From the NCBI RefSeq assembly GCF_000027125.1, contig NC_017626.1: a stretch of DNA of 64,000 nt, one strand, 5' to 3'. The stretch comes from Escherichia coli 042 (GTDB lineage Bacteria > Pseudomonadota > Gammaproteobacteria > Enterobacterales > Enterobacteriaceae). Positions 6,325-60,736 of the stretch are shown here, in pieces (the first letter of the stretch is position 1; each line of letters starts with the position of its first letter). The position numbers were made by a program, and so were the translations under genes. The notes beneath the pieces were generated by a model that was given only the letters and a program-made list of their open reading frames with translations, ran no database searches and was not told the DNA's origin.

Positions 6325-9300
6325 ATGACAGAACAACAAAAATTGACCTTTACGGCCTTGCAGCAGCGGCTGGATTCGCTGATGCTGCGCGACAGACAGC
6401 GTTTTTCTCGCCGTCTGCACGGCGTGAAGAAGGTTAAAAATCCTGATGCACAACAGGCCATTTTCCAGGAGATGGCGAAAGAGATTGACCATGCGGCAGG
6501 GAAAGTCCTGCTGCGTGAAGCGGCACGACCGGAAATCACTTATCCGGACAATTTGCCGGTTAGTCAGAAAAAGCAGGACATTCTCGAAGCAATTCGTGAT
6601 CACCAGGTAGTGATCGTCGCCGGGGAAACGGGTTCCGGTAAAACGACTCAGCTACCGAAAATCTGTATGGAGCTGGGCCGCGGGATTAAAGGGCTGATCG
6701 GCCATACCCAGCCGCGTCGTCTGGCGGCGCGAACGGTGGCGAACCGTATTGCGGAAGAGCTGAAAACGGAGCCGGGCGGTTGCATCGGTTACAAAGTGCG
6801 TTTCAGCGATCACGTAAGTGATAACACGATGGTCAAGCTGATGACCGACGGTATCCTGCTGGCGGAGATCCAGCAAGACCGCCTGCTGATGCAGTACGAC
6901 ACCATCATTATTGACGAAGCGCACGAACGCAGCCTGAATATCGATTTTCTGCTCGGCTATTTGAAAGAGTTGCTGCCGCGGCGTCCTGACCTAAAAATCA
7001 TTATCACTTCCGCGACTATCGACCCGGAACGCTTTTCGCGCCACTTTAATAATGCGCCGATTATCGAAGTCTCCGGTCGGACCTATCCGGTGGAAGTGCG
7101 CTATCGCCCGATTGTTGAAGAAGCCGATGATACCGAGCGCGATCAGTTGCAGGCGATTTTTGACGCTGTAGACGAACTGAGCCAGGAAAGCCCTGGCGAC
7201 ATTCTGATCTTTATGAGTGGTGAGCGGGAAATTCGCGATACCGCCGATGCGCTGAACAAGCTGAACTTACGCCATACCGAAATCTTGCCGCTTTATGCGC
7301 GGCTTTCGAACAGCGAACAGAACCGCGTGTTCCAGTCGCACAGTGGACGGCGCATTGTGCTGGCGACCAACGTCGCGGAAACCTCGCTGACCGTACCGGG
7401 GATTAAATACGTTATCGACCCAGGTACGGCGCGTATCAGCCGCTACAGCTATCGCACTAAAGTGCAGCGTTTGCCGATTGAGCCGATTTCTCAGGCGTCT
7501 GCCAACCAGCGTAAAGGCCGCTGTGGTCGTGTGTCAGAAGGGATCTGTATTCGTCTCTATTCGGAAGATGATTTCCTGTCGCGCCCGGAGTTTACCGATC
7601 CGGAGATTCTGCGTACCAACCTGGCCTCGGTTATTTTACAGATGACCGCGTTGGGGCTGGGTGATATCGCCGCGTTCCCATTTGTCGAAGCGCCGGATAA
7701 ACGTAATATCCAGGATGGCGTGCGTCTGCTCGAAGAGCTGGGCGCGATCACCACTGATGAACAGGCCAGCGCCTATAAACTGACGCCGCTCGGTCGCCAG
7801 CTTTCGCAATTGCCTGTCGATCCTCGTCTGGCGCGTATGGTGCTGGAAGCGCAAAAACATGGCTGCGTGCGTGAGGCGATGATTATCACGTCCGCGCTCT
7901 CCATCCAGGATCCGCGCGAACGACCGATGGACAAACAGCAGGCATCGGACGAAAAACATCGTCGCTTCCACGACAAAGAATCCGACTTCCTCGCGTTTGT
8001 AAATCTGTGGAATTATCTTGGCGAGCAGCAAAAGGCGCTTTCTTCCAACGCCTTCCGTCGCCTGTGTCGTACCGATTATCTCAACTATCTGCGCGTGCGC
8101 GAATGGCAGGATATCTACACCCAGTTGCGCCAGGTAGTAAAAGAACTTGGCATTCCAGTTAACAGCGAACCGGCGGAGTATCGCGAAATTCACATCGCCT
8201 TACTGACCGGTTTGCTTTCCCATATCGGCATGAAAGATGCCGATAAACAAGAATATACCGGCGCACGTAACGCGCGTTTTTCCATCTTTCCCGGTTCTGG
8301 TTTATTCAAAAAGCCGCCGAAATGGGTAATGGTGGCGGAACTGGTAGAAACCAGCCGCCTGTGGGGGCGCATTGCGGCACGCATCGATCCAGAATGGGTG
8401 GAGCCAGTTGCTCAGCATTTAATTAAACGCACCTACAGCGAACCACACTGGGAACGGGCGCAGGGCGCGGTGATGGCAACGGAAAAAGTCACCGTTTACG
8501 GGTTGCCGATTGTTGCCGCGCGTAAGGTCAACTACAGCCAGATCGATCCGGCGTTATGTCGTGAACTCTTTATTCGCCACGCGCTGGTGGAAGGTGACTG
8601 GCAGACACGTCATGCATTCTTCCGTGAAAACCTGAAACTGCGGGCTGAAGTGGAAGAACTGGAACACAAAACACGTCGCCGCGATATTCTGGTGGATGAC
8701 GAAACGCTGTTTGAGTTTTATGACCAGCGCATCAGCCACGATGTGATCTCTGCACGTCACTTCGACAGCTGGTGGAAAAAAGTCAGCCGCGAAACGCCTG
8801 ATTTGCTCAACTTTGAAAAGAGCATGTTGATCAAAGAAGGGGCGGAAAAGATCAGCAAGCTGGATTACCCGAACTTCTGGCATCAGGGCAATCTCAAACT
8901 GCGTTTGAGCTATCAGTTTGAGCCGGGGGCAGATGCTGACGGTGTGACTGTGCATATCCCGCTGCCGTTACTTAACCAGGTTGAGGAGAGCGGGTTTGAG
9001 TGGCAGATCCCCGGTCTGCGCCGCGAACTGGTGATTGCTCTGATTAAATCGTTGCCGAAACCAGTACGCCGTAATTTTGTGCCCGCGCCAAACTACGCCG
9101 AAGCTTTTTTAGGCCGCGTCACACCGCTGGAATTGCCGTTGCTCGACAGCCTTGAACGAGAGCTGCGGCGGATGACTGGCGTCACCGTTGACCGCGAAGA
9201 CTGGCACTGGGATCAGGTGCCCGATCACCTGAAAATCACCTTCCGCGTGGTGGATGACAAAAACAAGAAGCTAAAAGAAGGGCGCTCATTACAGGATCTG

Positions 9301-52554: not shown

Positions 52555-53093
52555 CAATAATGCCGGAGGTTAATGTTAATGAATCACTGGCGTAATTAAC
52601 TGGATATCCATTTGTTTGCTATGAATAGTAATTAAAGTTGGTACAACTATTTATATGATTGATGTAATTTCGTTTTTTATATGAAATATCAATTTAATAT
52701 AATCCGAAAATAAAACATCTTTTCGCATGTAGAGAAACATGTCGATATGATAGTGCAGTGCAGATCATGTCATCAGGGTAGGGCGGTAGCGTATTTAATC
52801 AGGGAAAGATTACGCAACGCTGCTTTTTTGTATTGAACGATTCGCATTTTATGTTTAAAAATTGCGATATTCCTTATTTCCTGAAGCTGTTTTTATTGCT
52901 TATACATGATCAAATACTCCTTACATAATTAAGGAGAACAAAATGGAACTTAATACACGCCAACAATTTGTATTACTTAAATAGACCAGTGAAGGTACGC
53001 ATCAGAACATCCGGTGAAGTGATTAATATTTCGTTGAATATTTCTCCCGATTTTTGAAACCTGCTGCTGTAGAAATTCTGAACAGGAGGAATT

Positions 53094-53378
53094 ATGCCTT
53101 TAGCAGCCAAACTCACCGACAAAGGCACCCAGCACGACGGTTATTACGAGACCGTCATCACCGCCGGGTCATCCACCGTCTTTATCGATGGTCTTCCCGC
53201 AGCCCGTCAGGGAGATCCGCTGACGCCGCATGCTAAACCGAAGCATCCCCCTCATCCCCGTAAAATCGCCAGAGGTTCTTCAACCGTCTTTATTGACGGC
53301 CTGCCCGCCGCCAGAAGCGGTGATGCTGTTGACTGCGGCGGCGTGGTTATTGGTGGCGGTACGGTAAATATAGGCTGA
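53094..53378 (+). CDS. PAAR-repeat protein (T6SS spike tip)
   Basis: 94-aa ORF with two LPAAR motifs (VFIDGLPAARQGD, VFIDGLPAARSGD); SD aggagg; 18 bp upstream of vgrG. Confidence 0.8.
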   Translation: MPLAAKLTDKGTQHDGYYETVITAGSSTVFIDGLPAARQGDPLTPHAKPKHPPHPRKIARGSSTVFIDGLPAARSGDAVDCGGVVIGGGTVNIG

Positions 53379-53396
53379 TATGTCTGAGAGGTATTT

Positions 53397-55802
53397 ATGT
53401 CCTTAAAAGGTCTTCGCTTTACGCTGGAGGTTGACGGCCAGGAGCCGGACACCTTTGCAGTGGTGAATTTCAGGTTAATCCAGAACCAGTCATATCCGTT
53501 TGTGATGAGTGTGGATGTTGCCAGCGACTCTTTTATGCAGACGGCGGAGATGCTGCTGGAGAAGAAGGCGACACTGACCATCTGGCAGGGCGCAGTGGCG
53601 CAGCGTTATGTCACCGGCGTGGTGGCGGGTTTTGGCATGCAGGAGAATAACGGCTGGCAGATGCGTTATCACCTGCGTATTGAGCCGCCGTTATGGCGGT
53701 GCGGGCTGCGGCAGAACTTTCGTATCTTCCAGCAGCAGGATATCCGGACGATATCGGCCACGTTACTGAACGAGAACGGCGTCACGGAGTGGACGCCGCT
53801 GTTTTATGAGGACCATCCGGCGCGGGAGTTCTGTGTCCAGTACGGGGAGTCGGACCTGGCGTTTCTGTCCCGGCTGTGGGCGGAGGAGGGTCTTTTCTTC
53901 TTTGAGCGGTTTGCGGCGGACAGTCCGGAGCAGAAGCTGACGCTGTGCGACGATGTGGCGGGGCTGTCACAGGCGGGGGAGTTTCCGTTTAACCCGGACA
54001 CATCGGCAGGTGCGGAGACGGAGTGTGTCAGTATGTTCCGTTATGAGGCGCATGTCCGCCCGTCATCGGTGCAGAGCCAGGATTACACCTTTAAGGTGCC
54101 GGACTGGCCGGGGATGTATGAGCAGCAGGGTGAGAACCTGAACGGACAGCTGGAGCAGTATGAGATATTTGATTATCCGGGAAGGTACAAGGATGAACAG
54201 CACGGCAAGGATTTCACGCTGTACCAGATGGAGAGCCTGCGCAGTGATGCGGAAAAGGCCACAGGGCAGAGTAATTCGCCGAAGCTGTGGCCGGGAACGC
54301 GGTTTATGCTGACGGGGCATCCGCAGAAGATGCTGAACCGTGAATGGCAGGTGGTACAGAGCATACTGTCAGGAAACCAGCCGCAGGCGCTGCACGGCAG
54401 CCAGGGAAAGGGAACCACGCTGGGCAATCAGTTAGAGGTGATACCGGCGGACCGGACGTGGCGTCCACGGCTGCAAAACAAACCGAAGGTGGACGGGCCA
54501 CAGAGCGCCATCGTCACCGGTCCTGCGGGAGAGGAAATCTTCTGCGATGAACATGGACGGGTACGGGTGAAGTTCCACTGGGACCGTTATCACGGGATGA
54601 CGGAGGCGAGTTCATGCTGGGTGCGGGTATCGCAGGCGTGGGCGGGGCCGGGGTTCGGTAACCTGGCGATACCACGGGTGGGTCAGGAGGTGATAGTGGA
54701 CTTCCTGAACGGCGACCCGGACCAGCCGATAATCATGGGGCGGACGTACCATGAGGACAACCGTTCGCCGGGCGACCTGCCGGGAACGAAGACGCAGATG
54801 ACCATCCGGTCAAAAACCTATAAAGGAAGCGGATTTAACGAGCTGCGGTTTGAAGACGCCACCAGTAATGAGCAGGTGTATATCCATGCCCAGAAGAACA
54901 TGGATACGGAGGTGCTCAACGACCGGACAACGGATGTGAAACATGACCATACGGAAACCATCGGGAACGACCAGAAGATAACGGTGGTGAAGGGGCAGAC
55001 GGTTCAGGTCGGGACCAGAAAAGAAGGGGGCCACGACCAGAGTATCACGGTGGCGAACGACCGGTGCATCACGGTACGTAATGACCAGACGCTGCAGGTG
55101 ACGAATGACCGGACGGTGAGCGTGAGTAATGATGACGGCCTGTACGTCAGAAATGACCGTAAAGTGACGGTGGAAGGGAAGCAGGAGCATAAGACGACGG
55201 GGAACCATATCAGTCTGGTGGAGGGAAAGCACAGCCTGGTGGTGAAGGGGGACCTGGCGAGGAAGGTGAGTGGCGCGCTGGGGATAAAGGTGGACGGGGA
55301 TATCGTGCTGGAGAGCAGCAGCCGGATAAGCCTGAAGGTGAGTGGCTCGTTTGTGGTCATCCATTCAGGGGGCGTGGACATCGTCGGGCCGAAAATCAAT
55401 CTCAATAGCGGCGGTAGTCCGGGGACGCCGGTGCCGGCGCTGCAACCGGCGGTGCTGAAGACACTGGGGGATGAGAAGAGTGGTGATGGCAGTGATTCCG
55501 GAGAAGAAAATGAAGACTCTGGAGGGAACTGCGTGACCGGAAGTGGTGGTGATGATCGAGGTGACGATGAGGATGAACCTGAAAAATATACTCTCCAGTT
55601 CCATTTTACAGACGATGACGGGATACCGTATTCAGAAACCCGCTACATTGCCTTCTTTGAGGATGGCACGCAGACCCGCGGAGAAACGGATGAAGAGGGG
55701 TATACAGAGCGTTTTTTTGTATCTAGCAAACATGAAATTAAAGTGAAGTTGTTATTTGCGAATGATGATTTTCTCTCAATGGAAGGACACTATGGACGAT
55801 AA
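53397..55802 (+). CDS. vgrG: Type VI secretion spike protein VgrG with C-terminal extension
   Basis: 801-aa ORF with gp27/gp5-like N-terminal two thirds, beta-helix repeat region (TVSVSNDDGLYVRNDRKVTV...), then an acidic Gly/Ser/Asp linker and a ~70-aa C-terminal domain. Confidence 0.9.
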   Translation: MSLKGLRFTLEVDGQEPDTFAVVNFRLIQNQSYPFVMSVDVASDSFMQTAEMLLEKKATLTIWQGAVAQRYVTGVVAGFGMQENNGWQMRYHLRIEPPLWRCGLRQNFRIFQQQDIRTISATLLNENGVTEWTPLFYEDHPAREFCVQYGESDLAFLSRLWAEEGLFFFERFAADSPEQKLTLCDDVAGLSQAGEFPFNPDTSAGAETECVSMFRYEAHVRPSSVQSQDYTFKVPDWPGMYEQQGENLNGQLEQYEIFDYPGRYKDEQHGKDFTLYQMESLRSDAEKATGQSNSPKLWPGTRFMLTGHPQKMLNREWQVVQSILSGNQPQALHGSQGKGTTLGNQLEVIPADRTWRPRLQNKPKVDGPQSAIVTGPAGEEIFCDEHGRVRVKFHWDRYHGMTEASSCWVRVSQAWAGPGFGNLAIPRVGQEVIVDFLNGDPDQPIIMGRTYHEDNRSPGDLPGTKTQMTIRSKTYKGSGFNELRFEDATSNEQVYIHAQKNMDTEVLNDRTTDVKHDHTETIGNDQKITVVKGQTVQVGTRKEGGHDQSITVANDRCITVRNDQTLQVTNDRTVSVSNDDGLYVRNDRKVTVEGKQEHKTTGNHISLVEGKHSLVVKGDLARKVSGALGIKVDGDIVLESSSRISLKVSGSFVVIHSGGVDIVGPKINLNSGGSPGTPVPALQPAVLKTLGDEKSGDGSDSGEENEDSGGNCVTGSGGDDRGDDEDEPEKYTLQFHFTDDDGIPYSETRYIAFFEDGTQTRGETDEEGYTERFFVSSKHEIKVKLLFANDDFLSMEGHYGR

Positions 55803-56583
55803 TAATCAAACTTCTGGACAACCAAAGCCAGAGCCAGAAGAATGTGTGAAAGAGCAAAAAATAACTGATCATTTTAAAATAATGATTGATAAGGCTCGTA
55901 AGGCACAAAAGTTGGTTTTGATAAAAAGAGCAGATGATCTTTTGAGATGGGGAGCACAGGAGGAATATGATTTCAGTAAGATCTTTGGTGTTAAAGGAAA
56001 TAAGGAGGTTAATATAAGAAAATATGGACATAATACAGGTAGGCGCATGAATGCTAGATTTCTTATGATGGATGGTGTGAGAAGATTAATGATTATAGCT
56101 AATGATTTAACAATGAGCAGTTTTATAAATTATACAGGTTGTAATGAATTTGCAGCATTCGTCAGCCCAAGTAAGGATATGCCCTATATAATTAACATAG
56201 GCGCAAAATTTGAGTATAGAGATGGCAAAAAAAATCCAGTAACGGGAAAGGATTCTCATGTTGCTACTTTATGTCATGAAATGTCTCATATTCAGTGGTA
56301 TTATGGGGATAATAAAAAAGGTGGTATGTGGTCACAGGATTATACAACTACTGATAAATATTCAACGTGCAAAGAGGATGAAGTTTCATATGACGAACAT
56401 ATCCGTATTGCAACTAAACTGATCTCTAAACAAAAAGATCAAATATTCGAGAATGCATATAACATAGAAAGATATTTTGAAATAAGATTAATTGAAAGTG
56501 AGATAGACTCGATTAATGATGAAATATTAAGCAATTCAGTTAAGAAAAAAATAGCGGAATTAGAAAAAGCACTTCTCCATTAA
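55792..56583 (+). CDS. Putative T6SS cargo effector with HExxH zinc-metallopeptidase motif
   Basis: 263 codons from ATG 55792, which overlaps the last 11 bp of vgrG; motif TLCHEMSHIQWYYG (HEXXH); no signal peptide or TM segment. Confidence 0.6.
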   Translation: MDDNNQTSGQPKPEPEECVKEQKITDHFKIMIDKARKAQKLVLIKRADDLLRWGAQEEYDFSKIFGVKGNKEVNIRKYGHNTGRRMNARFLMMDGVRRLMIIANDLTMSSFINYTGCNEFAAFVSPSKDMPYIINIGAKFEYRDGKKNPVTGKDSHVATLCHEMSHIQWYYGDNKKGGMWSQDYTTTDKYSTCKEDEVSYDEHIRIATKLISKQKDQIFENAYNIERYFEIRLIESEIDSINDEILSNSVKKKIAELEKALLH

Positions 56584-56606
56584 CTAATAAGTCGAGAAAT
56601 ATATTA

Positions 56607-57428
56607 ATGCTGCAAGCTATAAAAAAAATCATAATAATGACAATCGTAAATATTATATTTTTCTATTCCTTTCAATCGACTGCGGATGAAATGGTTTTAA
56701 TAAAAAAATACGGGTTTGGGCTTGAGAGAGATATCAAAGGAAGGCCATTAATTTATCCTATCGAAAATTATGATGAGTGTAAGAAAAAATGCAATCATAT
56801 GAATTATATAGCGGATGTCAATGCTCAATTAGCTATGAGTAAAAAAAATAACAGGATTTTTGCTAACATAACCTTTACTAACAATAGCTCTACCACGTAT
56901 TTTTTTTCTAAATATTACCTACCTATGAAAGTAAAAGATGGAAAAGGAGATGAATATGATGCGATATGCAAAAAACCATTCAGAATCAACTCTGGGAATA
57001 TCACGTTGGACTACTTAGGTGGTTCATGTCCTTTTGAAATTAATACGAATCCTGAACGGTGGAATACTATTAAACCAGGTCGTAGTTTTTTGTTGAGTAT
57101 AACCTTAAATGATATGTATGCCTTTATACCAGGAGATAATTATTATTTTATAAAATCATCTGGCTATAAATTTGTTAATGACAAGTGGTTTACACTCAAA
57201 TCAATCAATAATATTTTTCTTTATTTTTTAAATTTAAAAATTAATTGTGCTGATGATTTTTTTGATATTAATAATTTTACTACATGTGATAATTTGTTAT
57301 TAGATGAAAAAAAACACTTTTTTATTAATCAGTTATGGGCAATTGAGGATGAAAAAAATTCTATTTACGTCACCCCTGATGAAATTTCTATAAGTATAGA
57401 CGGCGATAACTTAAAGTTGCCATATTAG
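56607..57428 (+). CDS. Putative cognate immunity protein (secreted/periplasmic)
   Basis: 273-aa ORF 23 bp after the effector; N-terminal signal peptide (IIIMTIVNIIFFYSFQSTA/DE); AT-rich; no recognisable domain. Confidence 0.5.
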   Translation: MLQAIKKIIIMTIVNIIFFYSFQSTADEMVLIKKYGFGLERDIKGRPLIYPIENYDECKKKCNHMNYIADVNAQLAMSKKNNRIFANITFTNNSSTTYFFSKYYLPMKVKDGKGDEYDAICKKPFRINSGNITLDYLGGSCPFEINTNPERWNTIKPGRSFLLSITLNDMYAFIPGDNYYFIKSSGYKFVNDKWFTLKSINNIFLYFLNLKINCADDFFDINNFTTCDNLLLDEKKHFFINQLWAIEDEKNSIYVTPDEISISIDGDNLKLPY

Positions 57429-57447
57429 GAATCTGTGAAAGAACAAG

Positions 57448-57936
57448 GTGCGCCGCTTTTTTGTACTAAATAATTCGCATTTTAGTCACGGCAGAGAAGA
57501 AATCCATCTTCATATTGTTTGCGATGTCCCTGATGAACTTATTGATTTCACGTTTGAATGGAAAGGTCAGAAGAAATTATGCGTGGCAGTCTCCTTTTGG
57601 TCAATAATAGCAGAACAAAAGAAAGAGCCAGAAATGACGGTCAGATATTATATCAGTTCTGCTGATTTAACCGCAAAAAAGTTCGCCACAGCGATACGAA
57701 ATCACTGGCACGTGGAGAATAAGCTGCACTGGCGTCTGGACGTGGTAATGAACGAAGACGACTGCAAAATAAGAAGAGGAAACGCCGCAGAATTATTTTC
57801 AGGGATACGGCACATCGCTATTAATATTTTAACGAATGATAAGGTATTCAAGGCAGGGTTAAGACGCAAGATGCGAAAAGCAGCTATGGACAGAGACTAC
57901 CTCGCGTCAGTCCTTGCGGGGAGCGGGCTTTCGTAA
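57448..57936 (+). pseudogene. H-repeat-associated (ISAs1-family transposase) C-terminal remnant
   Basis: 162-aa ORF whose C-terminal ~110 aa ([63 protein letters not shown]...) matches the C-terminus of H-rpt / ISAs1 transposases; N-terminal catalytic part absent. Confidence 0.75.
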
Positions 57937-58044
57937 TCTTGCCCTGGCGATCGAATAGCGCAGATGACGGTGCTCTAAATTTGAATCTAATAAGCCGGTG
58001 TTATTTTTCATCCACTATTAAAATCTTGACACAACGAGGCAACA

Positions 58045-58605
58045 ATGAAAAAAAGCAAAAAAATTAAAACAATGAACCATCAAAATAATAGCGGGATACA
58101 AAATCAACCAGACTATCACATCGAAATAGAAAGAAAAAATATGGTAAGATTGCTTGATGAACGTATTGATAAAGTTTACGGTTCATTGCTAGGACCAATG
58201 AAAAAGAAAAATATAGATAAAATACGTCATTTTACACTTGATGTAATGGTGTTTATTCTTGACACGAACCCTCGTGTTTGTAATAAATTATCCAGGGAAA
58301 TAATATCTTTAGCGCAAAATACCTTCATTGAAAAAAACGTTAATTTTTCAACTTTTAATAATGAACAGCATAGAATAAGGGAGTATATGAATGAAGGTGG
58401 TGGAATACGATGGTTTACATGGGATAACCCCGAGATATCTTTTGTTCGTGCATCTTTTGGCCTTTTTGTCAAAATGGAAACAAAAGGTGATCATGAACAT
58501 ACACTAAGTGACACATTTCTTCAGATTGTTGAGTGTGTTAATTTAAATATAGGACTTATTGCAAAAGATGAACTGGTAAAAATCATCAATAAACACTTTA
58601 TGTAA
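58045..58605 (+). CDS. Hypothetical protein (AT-rich orphan)
   Basis: 186-aa ORF in a low-GC block downstream of the H-rpt remnant; no recognisable motif. Confidence 0.4.
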   Translation: MKKSKKIKTMNHQNNSGIQNQPDYHIEIERKNMVRLLDERIDKVYGSLLGPMKKKNIDKIRHFTLDVMVFILDTNPRVCNKLSREIISLAQNTFIEKNVNFSTFNNEQHRIREYMNEGGGIRWFTWDNPEISFVRASFGLFVKMETKGDHEHTLSDTFLQIVECVNLNIGLIAKDELVKIINKHFM

Positions 58606-58964: not shown

Positions 58965-59600
58965 ATGAATAAAGGTAATAGATTACAACAGTTAGAAGAT
59001 GCGTGTCGTGATATTATTAAAATTAACATGTGGTATGAACTCCCCGATTATGTATTTTTTTCAATATCTGACACCATCGATGGGACGAGTGATGAATTCG
59101 CAATAAATGTGTATAAAAATATCGATAAAAGTCTTCTTGAAATATTATTGCATCCATCTGTTTTACTGTCAGTTGTTGAGTCCTTACAAAGTAATACTAT
59201 AGCTGAGTATATCGTGAAATTGTCTGAAATAGAGATGAATTATGACGACTTGCTAATATCGGATGTTAAATCATGTCTTTTTATCAACTATGGATTCAAT
59301 AACAGTGAATCGGTTGCGCTATTTAATAAGATTTACCGCGAATTAAAAGATATTGTAAAATCATCAAGAGTACATATAGATCATGAGAAAGATATTTTTG
59401 ATGGCCTTAATCAAATCTTGGCTTTTTCCGATAATAATAAACATGAGTATTTTTTATATATAAAGGCATATTGGCTCAGTTTATACTTTTGTGAAATTTC
59501 ACAGAACGTGAGAGAAAGAGATAAGTTGTCATTTTATTATAATGAATTTTCTGTCCGATTTCCTAATGTTGTCCTATATCCGTCATGCTACAAATTGTAA
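58965..59600 (+). CDS. Hypothetical protein (AT-rich orphan)
   Basis: 211-aa ORF in a low-GC block; no signal peptide; no recognisable motif. Confidence 0.4.
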   Translation: MNKGNRLQQLEDACRDIIKINMWYELPDYVFFSISDTIDGTSDEFAINVYKNIDKSLLEILLHPSVLLSVVESLQSNTIAEYIVKLSEIEMNYDDLLISDVKSCLFINYGFNNSESVALFNKIYRELKDIVKSSRVHIDHEKDIFDGLNQILAFSDNNKHEYFLYIKAYWLSLYFCEISQNVRERDKLSFYYNEFSVRFPNVVLYPSCYKL

Positions 59601-59779
59601 GGCTTGGCACCTGAAATTCATTGTTAATTCGAGACGCTTGATTGTCCACTATATCAAAACAGTCATACCTCGGAATTTTCTCGCATTAGTCCATACGGTA
59701 TTCAATATTCGCAACTGTGCCCTGAAATAAAAAACTGCAAAACTGCTTTTTCTTGACCTGTCCCAATCACGCAAGACTA

Positions 59780-59926
59780 CTTTTAGTAGAGACCTCCAGC
59801 TATGTCGATTTTAGTGCCGCCCGCGCATTTTATACAAAACAGGGCTTTATTAATGAAGCTATAATACGCAATTACTATGATGTTGGTGAGGATAAATTAA
59901 TCTTCACTAAAAATATGCAATCGTGA
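59780..59926 (+). pseudogene. C-terminal remnant of a RimI-like GNAT acetyltransferase
   Basis: Hand translation ...LLLVETSSYVDFSAARAFYTKQGFINEAIIRNYYDVGEDKLIFTKNMQS* resembles the C-terminal motif of RimI-type GNATs; frame is closed by TGA about 55 codons upstream, so no full-length gene. Confidence 0.4.
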
Positions 59927-59992
59927 GATAAAATATGCTTTTAACTCATATTGAAACATTGCTTAAGCAACTTGGTTGCTGCATATGATTCT

Positions 59993-60562
59993 TTAGCCCG
60001 CGGTGACTCGCTTGCCGCTGGTAACAAACGTGCCAGCACCTAAGTGATGTAGTGTATTGAGTTTATCATCATCAAACTGCCAGCGGCCTTCGACAAATAC
60101 CCGTGCGTCTGCCGCTGCTGATACCACCTCGCCAAACAGCGTGTCGTATTTTTCTTGCGCGGAAGTCGCAGGTAGCAAGCGGCACTCCATCCACGCCAGA
60201 CATTTTTCCTCGACCAGAGGCAAACCAAGTACCGGACCTTTCACTACTGGAATGCCGTAGCAATTAAATTTATCTTCTTCACGACCCGACACACTTCCCA
60301 CCGCCCACGTCCAGTTAGTTGCTGCAACGCCCGGGATAACGATGCCAAATTTACCGTTACGTTCAATCAACTCCCTGGTCCATGTCGATTTATCTACCAC
60401 GATCGCAACACGTGGCGGTTCAAACTCTACCGGCATCGACCAGGCCGCAGCCATCACATTACGTCGCTGTGATTTTTCATCAAAAGTTGTTATCAAAATA
60501 GTTGGGCCATGATTTAACAGACGGCTGGCATGGTGTAATTCGACAGGGATGAATCGGCTCAC
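59993..60562 (-). CDS. yddH: Flavin reductase-like protein YddH
   Basis: 189-aa ORF at the conserved position before nhoA. Confidence 0.9.
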   Translation of the reverse strand: MSRFIPVELHHASRLLNHGPTILITTFDEKSQRRNVMAAAWSMPVEFEPPRVAIVVDKSTWTRELIERNGKFGIVIPGVAATNWTWAVGSVSGREEDKFNCYGIPVVKGPVLGLPLVEEKCLAWMECRLLPATSAQEKYDTLFGEVVSAAADARVFVEGRWQFDDDKLNTLHHLGAGTFVTSGKRVTAG

Positions 60563-60736
60563 GGTATCGCCTCGCTAAGAAGGGGGTTTTAAAAGCGTAG
60601 CTCGTAACGCTATAAGTAACGAAATTAACGGGATTGGCGATTTGCGAACGTGATGCATGTCCGCGATCGCACAAAATAGCCGGTGCGGCGTCTATTCCAG
60701 GTTATAAGTTGAGAAAACCACTAAGGGAAACGCCTG

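Follow-up and report, generated by a model that had tools for sequence, protein, structure and literature searches.

A truncated GNAT acetyltransferase gene next to yddH in Escherichia coli 042, very probably the remnant of an internal 466-bp deletion

In the window (the whole stretch of 64,000 nucleotides of E. coli 042, contig NC_017626.1, that was analysed), a short open frame next to the yddH gene ends like an acetyltransferase of the GNAT family and has no N-terminal half. The locus raises the question of which gene this piece comes from, how the rest was lost, and whether the break is the right-hand scar of the vgrG island, as a preliminary description of the locus had proposed. No feature is annotated over the remnant in RefSeq. 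The two elements concerned are the following.

59726-59926, plus strand: the open frame of the preliminary description, 66 codons (59726-59923) and a TGA stop codon (59924-59926).
59768-59926, plus strand: 3' remnant of a GNAT acetyltransferase gene, codons 104-155 of a 155-codon gene and the stop codon, placed by BLASTP, DNA alignment and codon mapping.

The frame itself was found as first described: it is closed upstream by a TGA codon (59723-59725), it adjoins yddH on the upstream side in the window, yddH being convergent, and its translation ends in ...ARAFYTKQGFINEAIIRNYYDVGEDKLIFTKNMQS, also given as ...ARLLLVETSSYVDFSAARAFYTKQGFINEAIIRNYYDVGEDKLIFTKNMQS. The GNAT-derived part is limited to the last 51-52 of the 66 codons (59768-59923), equivalent to residues 104/105-155 of a 155-aa parent, and the first 14 codons (59726-59767) are former intergenic sequence that is open in this frame by chance. 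The reported C-terminal GNAT signature was borne out by BLASTP, in which residues 16-66 of the fragment matched residues 105-155 of a GNAT protein of E. coli MB53 with 47 identities out of 51 (92%, E 1e-34) and a Phytobacter homologue with 39 out of 51 (E 3e-28). As DNA, the remnant shares 93.7% identity with the MB53 gene and 85-88% with a full-length paralogue in strain R32_14_1F. A Pfam profile search with the 66-aa fragment alone gave no match and the NCBIfam rimI profile matched it below its cut-off (E 3.4e-4, 20.8 bits); since these fragment-only matches are weak, the identification rests on the full-length relatives. The fragment can thus be placed in the GNAT superfamily (PF00583/PF13508) by descent, through its 92% identity to the C-terminus of the parent. 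The acetyl-CoA-binding half was rightly described as missing: the window has neither the motif QRQGVG (parent residues 84-89) nor the N-terminal beta1-beta4 core, and a copy that lacks both motif A (Q/R-x-x-G-x-G/A) and this core would not be a functional GNAT enzyme. The window is 100% identical over the test stretch to E. coli Ecol_316 and many other strains. In Ecol_316 the locus tags go from BE963_RS21865 to RS21875, RS21870 being skipped exactly at the remnant, where an earlier annotation round probably called something that a later one withdrew.

A full-length parent had been predicted to exist in other E. coli, and the DNA search did find it next to yddH in a few strains, MB53 and 2014C-3075 among them. 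In MB53, the intact 155-aa gene adjoins yddH (positions 7017-7484 of the extracted locus L005; WP_000470660.1, named 'GNAT family N-acetyltransferase' in RefSeq), and in 2014C-3075 it occupies the same locus (L015, 7107-7574; WP_123000022.1). The MB53 protein exceeds the Pfam cut-offs for GNAT domains (Acetyltransf_7, 39.7 bits versus 27; Acetyltransf_1, 33.5 versus 20.7). The term 'RimI-like' used for the fragment holds loosely, as a database name, and fails in the sense of a rimI equivalog: the parent reaches 37.4 bits against an equivalog cut-off of 86.4 for TIGR01575 and 26.7 against 173 for NF007025, so that its identification as RimI was rejected. RimI chains of the PDB (5isv, 2cnm) match the parent at E 6.5e-5 to 2.4e-4 only, and among solved structures the nearest is 2r7h (E 1.4e-14), an uncharacterised protein listed as 'putative D-alanine N-acetyltransferase'. 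Homologues of about 155 aa with 60-77% identity occur in Salmonella, Phytobacter, Enterobacter (including a plasmid), Kluyvera, Citrobacter, Serratia, Yokenella and Aeromonas, and their names in these genera are generic. The Phytobacter homologue has MarR and MFS genes as neighbours and a left flank that varies, the Salmonella one lies on an integrase-bearing island, and no conserved partner gene was found in these two neighbourhoods. A toxin-antitoxin GNAT of the TacT/AtaT type was also considered and rejected: no RHH/DUF1778 antitoxin partner is present in MB53, 2014C-3075 or R32_14_1F, and the Phytobacter and Salmonella homologues are stand-alone genes with unrelated neighbours. On these comparisons, the parent is best described as a stand-alone accessory GNAT distinct from RimI, to which no substrate is assigned. 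A literature search retrieved general descriptions of the variable region and none on this GNAT.

How the gene was truncated was read from the alignment of the window between 58900 and 60000 with MB53, which revealed a single clean gap, flanked on either side by sequence of about 93% identity. The MB53 sequence missing from the window is exactly 466 bp long, is also present in strain JNE112863, and begins 158 bp before the GNAT start (MB53 position 6860; ATG at 7017), extending to codon 103/104. The elements on the left-hand side and the junction are as follows.

58045-58605, plus strand: ORF186, a hypothetical gene, also upstream in MB53 by colinearity.
58965-59600, plus strand: ORF211, a hypothetical gene, located ahead of the GNAT gene in undeleted strains (MB53 alignment).
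59601-59767, plus strand: spacer 3' of ORF211, in which colinearity with MB53 and JNE112863 extends as far as the junction; the non-GNAT codons at the head of the open frame come from its final 42 bases.
59764-59771, without strand: deletion junction, best placed at 59767/59768 by the MB53 alignment and ambiguous within this range.

The junction reads CCTGTC/CCAATCACGCAAGAC, with the slash at the break, and close to each parental breakpoint there is a short, imperfect CAAT repeat. The presence of ORF211 ahead of the GNAT gene in undeleted strains shows that the DNA to the left of the break is in its native surroundings. Pfam and NCBIfam searches found no family for ORF186 or ORF211, and tblastn gave no matches for them beside GNAT homologues elsewhere, where the neighbourhoods are unrelated. 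Both genes are AT-rich (30% GC). Owing to a CAT to TAA change, ORF211 falls 9 codons short of the length of its homologue in MB53; a homologue is named 'aminopeptidase' in some RefSeq records, for which the family searches gave no support.

When 5,426 complete E. coli genomes were searched at the DNA level in distant mode, GNAT sequence was detected at the locus in 660, and in 238 the junction was spanned in one aligned piece. The identical junction is found behind four left-hand configurations in total, including that of ST70 and HCP5S3_I2, where it follows an Rhs core, an immunity gene, a complete ISAs1/ydcC and the 3' part of ORF211, and that of AST240, where it follows an Rhs' gene and then an IS1B insertion. 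Because both flanks are colinear with undeleted strains and the same junction stands behind other cassettes, the break is very probably one old internal deletion of 466 bp in an accessory GNAT gene, and the remnant a non-functional pseudogene piece left by it. Intact alleles at the orthologous position (MB53, 2014C-3075), together with the loss of essential parts in the window, are what one would expect of a pseudogene.

In this lineage, events very probably took the following course. An accessory 155-aa GNAT gene took the slot by yddH, where the yncG-yddH region (the RhsE/H-repeat site) ends on the right, displacing the tautomerase gene pptA except for its last ~47 bp. A single spontaneous deletion of 466 bp then removed the promoter region, the start codon and codons 1-103, joining the spacer 3' of ORF211 to codon 104. 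The leftover piece, deprived of acetyl-CoA binding and of a start codon, would since have been drifting. The deletion was presumably a product of illegitimate recombination or slippage and not of an IS, although the microhomology at the junction is short and imperfect.

This reading has to be weighed against the one in which an insertion or exchange of the vgrG island left the truncation behind as its right-hand scar of recombination or deletion. The neighbourhood speaks in its favour, since the genes of the variable region end with the GNAT remnant, some 70 bp away from yddH, and the content to its left differs among strains throughout. The breakpoint does not: MB53, where vgrG is missing from this site, has ORF186, ORF211 and the spacer arranged in the same order, and the vgrG-M35 block stops 1.8 kb further left, at an insertion sequence remnant that divides it from the ORF186-ORF211-GNAT' segment.

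57437-57946, plus strand: ISAs1/ISEc1 (H-repeat) remnant, in which 48 bp of the left end (57437-57484) are fused at 57484 to the right ~463 bp.

Moreover, UTI89 shares the PAAR-VgrG-M35 block with the window (97% identity over 4.4 kb) and yet has a full-length GNAT pseudogene. The junction common to the Rhs-immunity-ISAs1 and Rhs'-IS1B strains must predate the vgrG-M35 configuration or be independent of it. Thus the locus was correctly located at the edge of a variable region, but both flanks of the break are colinear with undeleted strains, the breakpoint does not coincide with the variable/core junction, and an island scar is very unlikely. An adjacent deletion caused by an ISAs1/H-repeat element that formerly occupied the junction and later disappeared or decayed is also quite unlikely, in spite of the abundance of ISAs1 relics in the region (52800-52953, 57437-57946) and of other strains in which ISEc1 directly abuts the GNAT upstream region. 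No IS terminus was found at the junction (59764-59771). The segment 59566-59700 weakly resembles, in one frame, the last 45 residues of the ISAs1 transposase YdcC (36% identity), but this likeness is not significant (E 0.6, and a DNA score within the range of shuffled sequences) and its putative end, at about 59725, lies 42 bp to the left of the junction. The segment may be a very degraded H-repeat right end 3' of ORF211.

Finally, the remnant could be read as a functional small ORF of 57 codons starting at TTG 59753, a GNAT C-terminal peptide with a new role. Its frame is open, it is 98-100% conserved in most carriers, and over the GNAT part of the 66-codon frame its protein sequence is still 92% identical to the intact allele. 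The high identity among carriers is nevertheless accounted for by recent common ancestry. Against a functional peptide, there is no in-frame ATG, the TTG at 59753 is the only candidate start and lacks a Shine-Dalgarno sequence, and a search over the remnant for a promoter-like site on the plus strand, a terminator or an Rfam family found none; the remnant is presumably not expressed. The acetyl-CoA motif and the beta1-beta4 core are gone, HCP5S3_I2 bears a 12-bp deletion just upstream of the remnant, and substitutions in the remnant among deletion-bearing alleles are mainly non-synonymous (5 versus 2 synonymous, counts too small for dN/dS). Small as these numbers are, they are consistent with drift, and a functional small ORF is scarcely credible. 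The pseudogene reading also fits into the wider fate of the gene in E. coli. In the UTI89-type allele, codon 72 is changed from TGG to TGA and a 1-bp frameshift is present (416 genomes at least 99% identical); in JNE112863, AAA to TAA at codon 127 gives a product of 126 aa; and in GF4-3 the GNAT product has 108 aa. An undeleted, non-UTI89 allele occurs in only about 15-17 genomes and is intact in some of those only. As judged from these alleles, at least four different lesions have inactivated the GNAT gene within the species.

The true right-hand limit of the variable region is found about 20 bp past the GNAT stop codon, where three elements follow each other.

59927-59944, plus strand: 3' flank of the GNAT gene, common with the paralogous GNAT locus of R32_14_1F, and end of the GNAT module.
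59945-59992, plus strand: relic of the 3' end of pptA, about 47 bp (tautomerase gene b1461 of K-12), from colinear alignment and BLAST.
59993-60562, minus strand: yddH, flavin reductase family (Pfam Flavin_Reduct, E 1e-21; RefSeq), the core gene that anchors the locus.

Homology to the R32_14_1F paralogue stops 18 bp past the GNAT stop codon, at 59944. From there, the 48 bases of 59945-59992 match the last 46 bases of K-12 pptA at 31 of 48 positions in a fixed colinear register, a score reached by none of 5000 shuffles; in the pptA frame, the relic reads ...HIETLLKQLGCCI* and the K-12 gene ...QMEALIKKPGYSMNA*, the asterisk standing for the stop codon. The BLAST alignment of K-12 over yddH reaches back to 59959. 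In K-12, pptA adjoins the 3' end of yddH with an overlap of 4 bp and lies about 100 bp after ydcC (ISAs1); in 2014C-3075, the gap between a complete ISEc1 and the intact GNAT gene is 117 bp. The position of the GNAT gene after ISEc1 mirrors that of pptA after ydcC and, together with the pptA relic, places the GNAT module in the slot of pptA, so that the variable region ends on the right with the GNAT/pptA' join, at about 59945. The yddH gene and its flanks (59959-60700) are about 90% identical to K-12 and about 93% to UTI89 and MB53. Typical E. coli core genes are much less diverged than this, which suggests old allelic lineages of yddH or recombination tracts reaching into it from the variable region.

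The variable region itself bears several marks of exchange. The PAAR-VgrG-M35-hypothetical block (53095-57393) is bracketed by two left ends of ISAs1/ISEc1 (52800-52953 and 57437-57484), an arrangement that suggests recombination between H-repeat copies as the route by which the vgrG cassette entered or was exchanged; from its structure, the second copy (57437-57946) can be classed as an internal deletion of the IS. Within 55793-57393, a gene annotated 'peptidase M35' overlaps the end of the VgrG gene and is followed by a hypothetical gene of 261 aa, and the two look like a candidate type VI secretion effector-immunity pair. In R32_14_1F (L002, 5482-6347), a second, intact GNAT paralogue with 85% DNA identity lies beside flagellar genes and is flanked on both sides by relics of the ISAs1 3' end. 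A database protein of 187 aa (P0072) joins the ISAs1 N-terminal domain (PF13808) to GNAT-like sequence. H-repeat elements seem to carry the GNAT module along with them. Taken further, the location of the GNAT gene right after the ISAs1 right end in 2014C-3075, the ISAs1 relics at the R32_14_1F locus and the P0072 fusion would make it a dedicated passenger of H-repeat (ISAs1)/Rhs-VgrG orphan-module arrays with a role in effector/immunity traffic, an idea that we regard as remote. If it were true, the role could be, for example, the neutralization of a toxin by acetylation, and the inactivations, at least four and independent, would stand for the loss of that role instead of plain drift.

The feature as a whole is of an ordinary and already known kind. 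The parent is annotated in RefSeq and the region has been published as variable, both as the RhsE site b1455-b1461 (PMC3032704) and as 'GR11 yncG..yddH' of ExPEC genomes (PMC12928451). The significance is mostly one of annotation, and no new biological question is raised: the remnant and the ~47-bp pptA relic, which is likewise unannotated in RefSeq, together show exactly where the yncG-yddH (RhsE) region ends on the right, and the 466-bp deletion may serve as a handy neutral marker for following how Rhs, VgrG and ISAs1 cassettes were swapped on the left while the right-hand anchor stayed constant.

Compared with known systems, the remnant stands closest to the alleles of its own locus. WP_000470660.1 and WP_123000022.1 are products of the same gene at the same locus, with 155 aa, a start codon and the QRQGVG motif, whereas the window keeps the last third. 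The GNAT pseudogene of the UTI89 type is also at this locus, dead, and 95% identical over the shared part, its N-terminal piece being annotated as the hypothetical protein WP_000470661.1; it is of full length with a nonsense codon and a frameshift, whereas the window has the 466-bp deletion instead. With RimI, the ribosomal protein S18-alanine N-acetyltransferase, the parent has in common the GNAT fold, a similar size and the C-terminal beta-strand region, and RimI is its best NCBIfam match. As to the site, the RhsE/H-repeat locus of K-12 (yncH to pptA) is the same slot with the same arrangement, in which ISAs1 (ydcC/ISEc1) is followed by a small gene and then by the convergent yddH; in K-12 this slot holds a complete pptA, whereas in the window about 47 bp of pptA are left and a truncated GNAT gene stands in its place.
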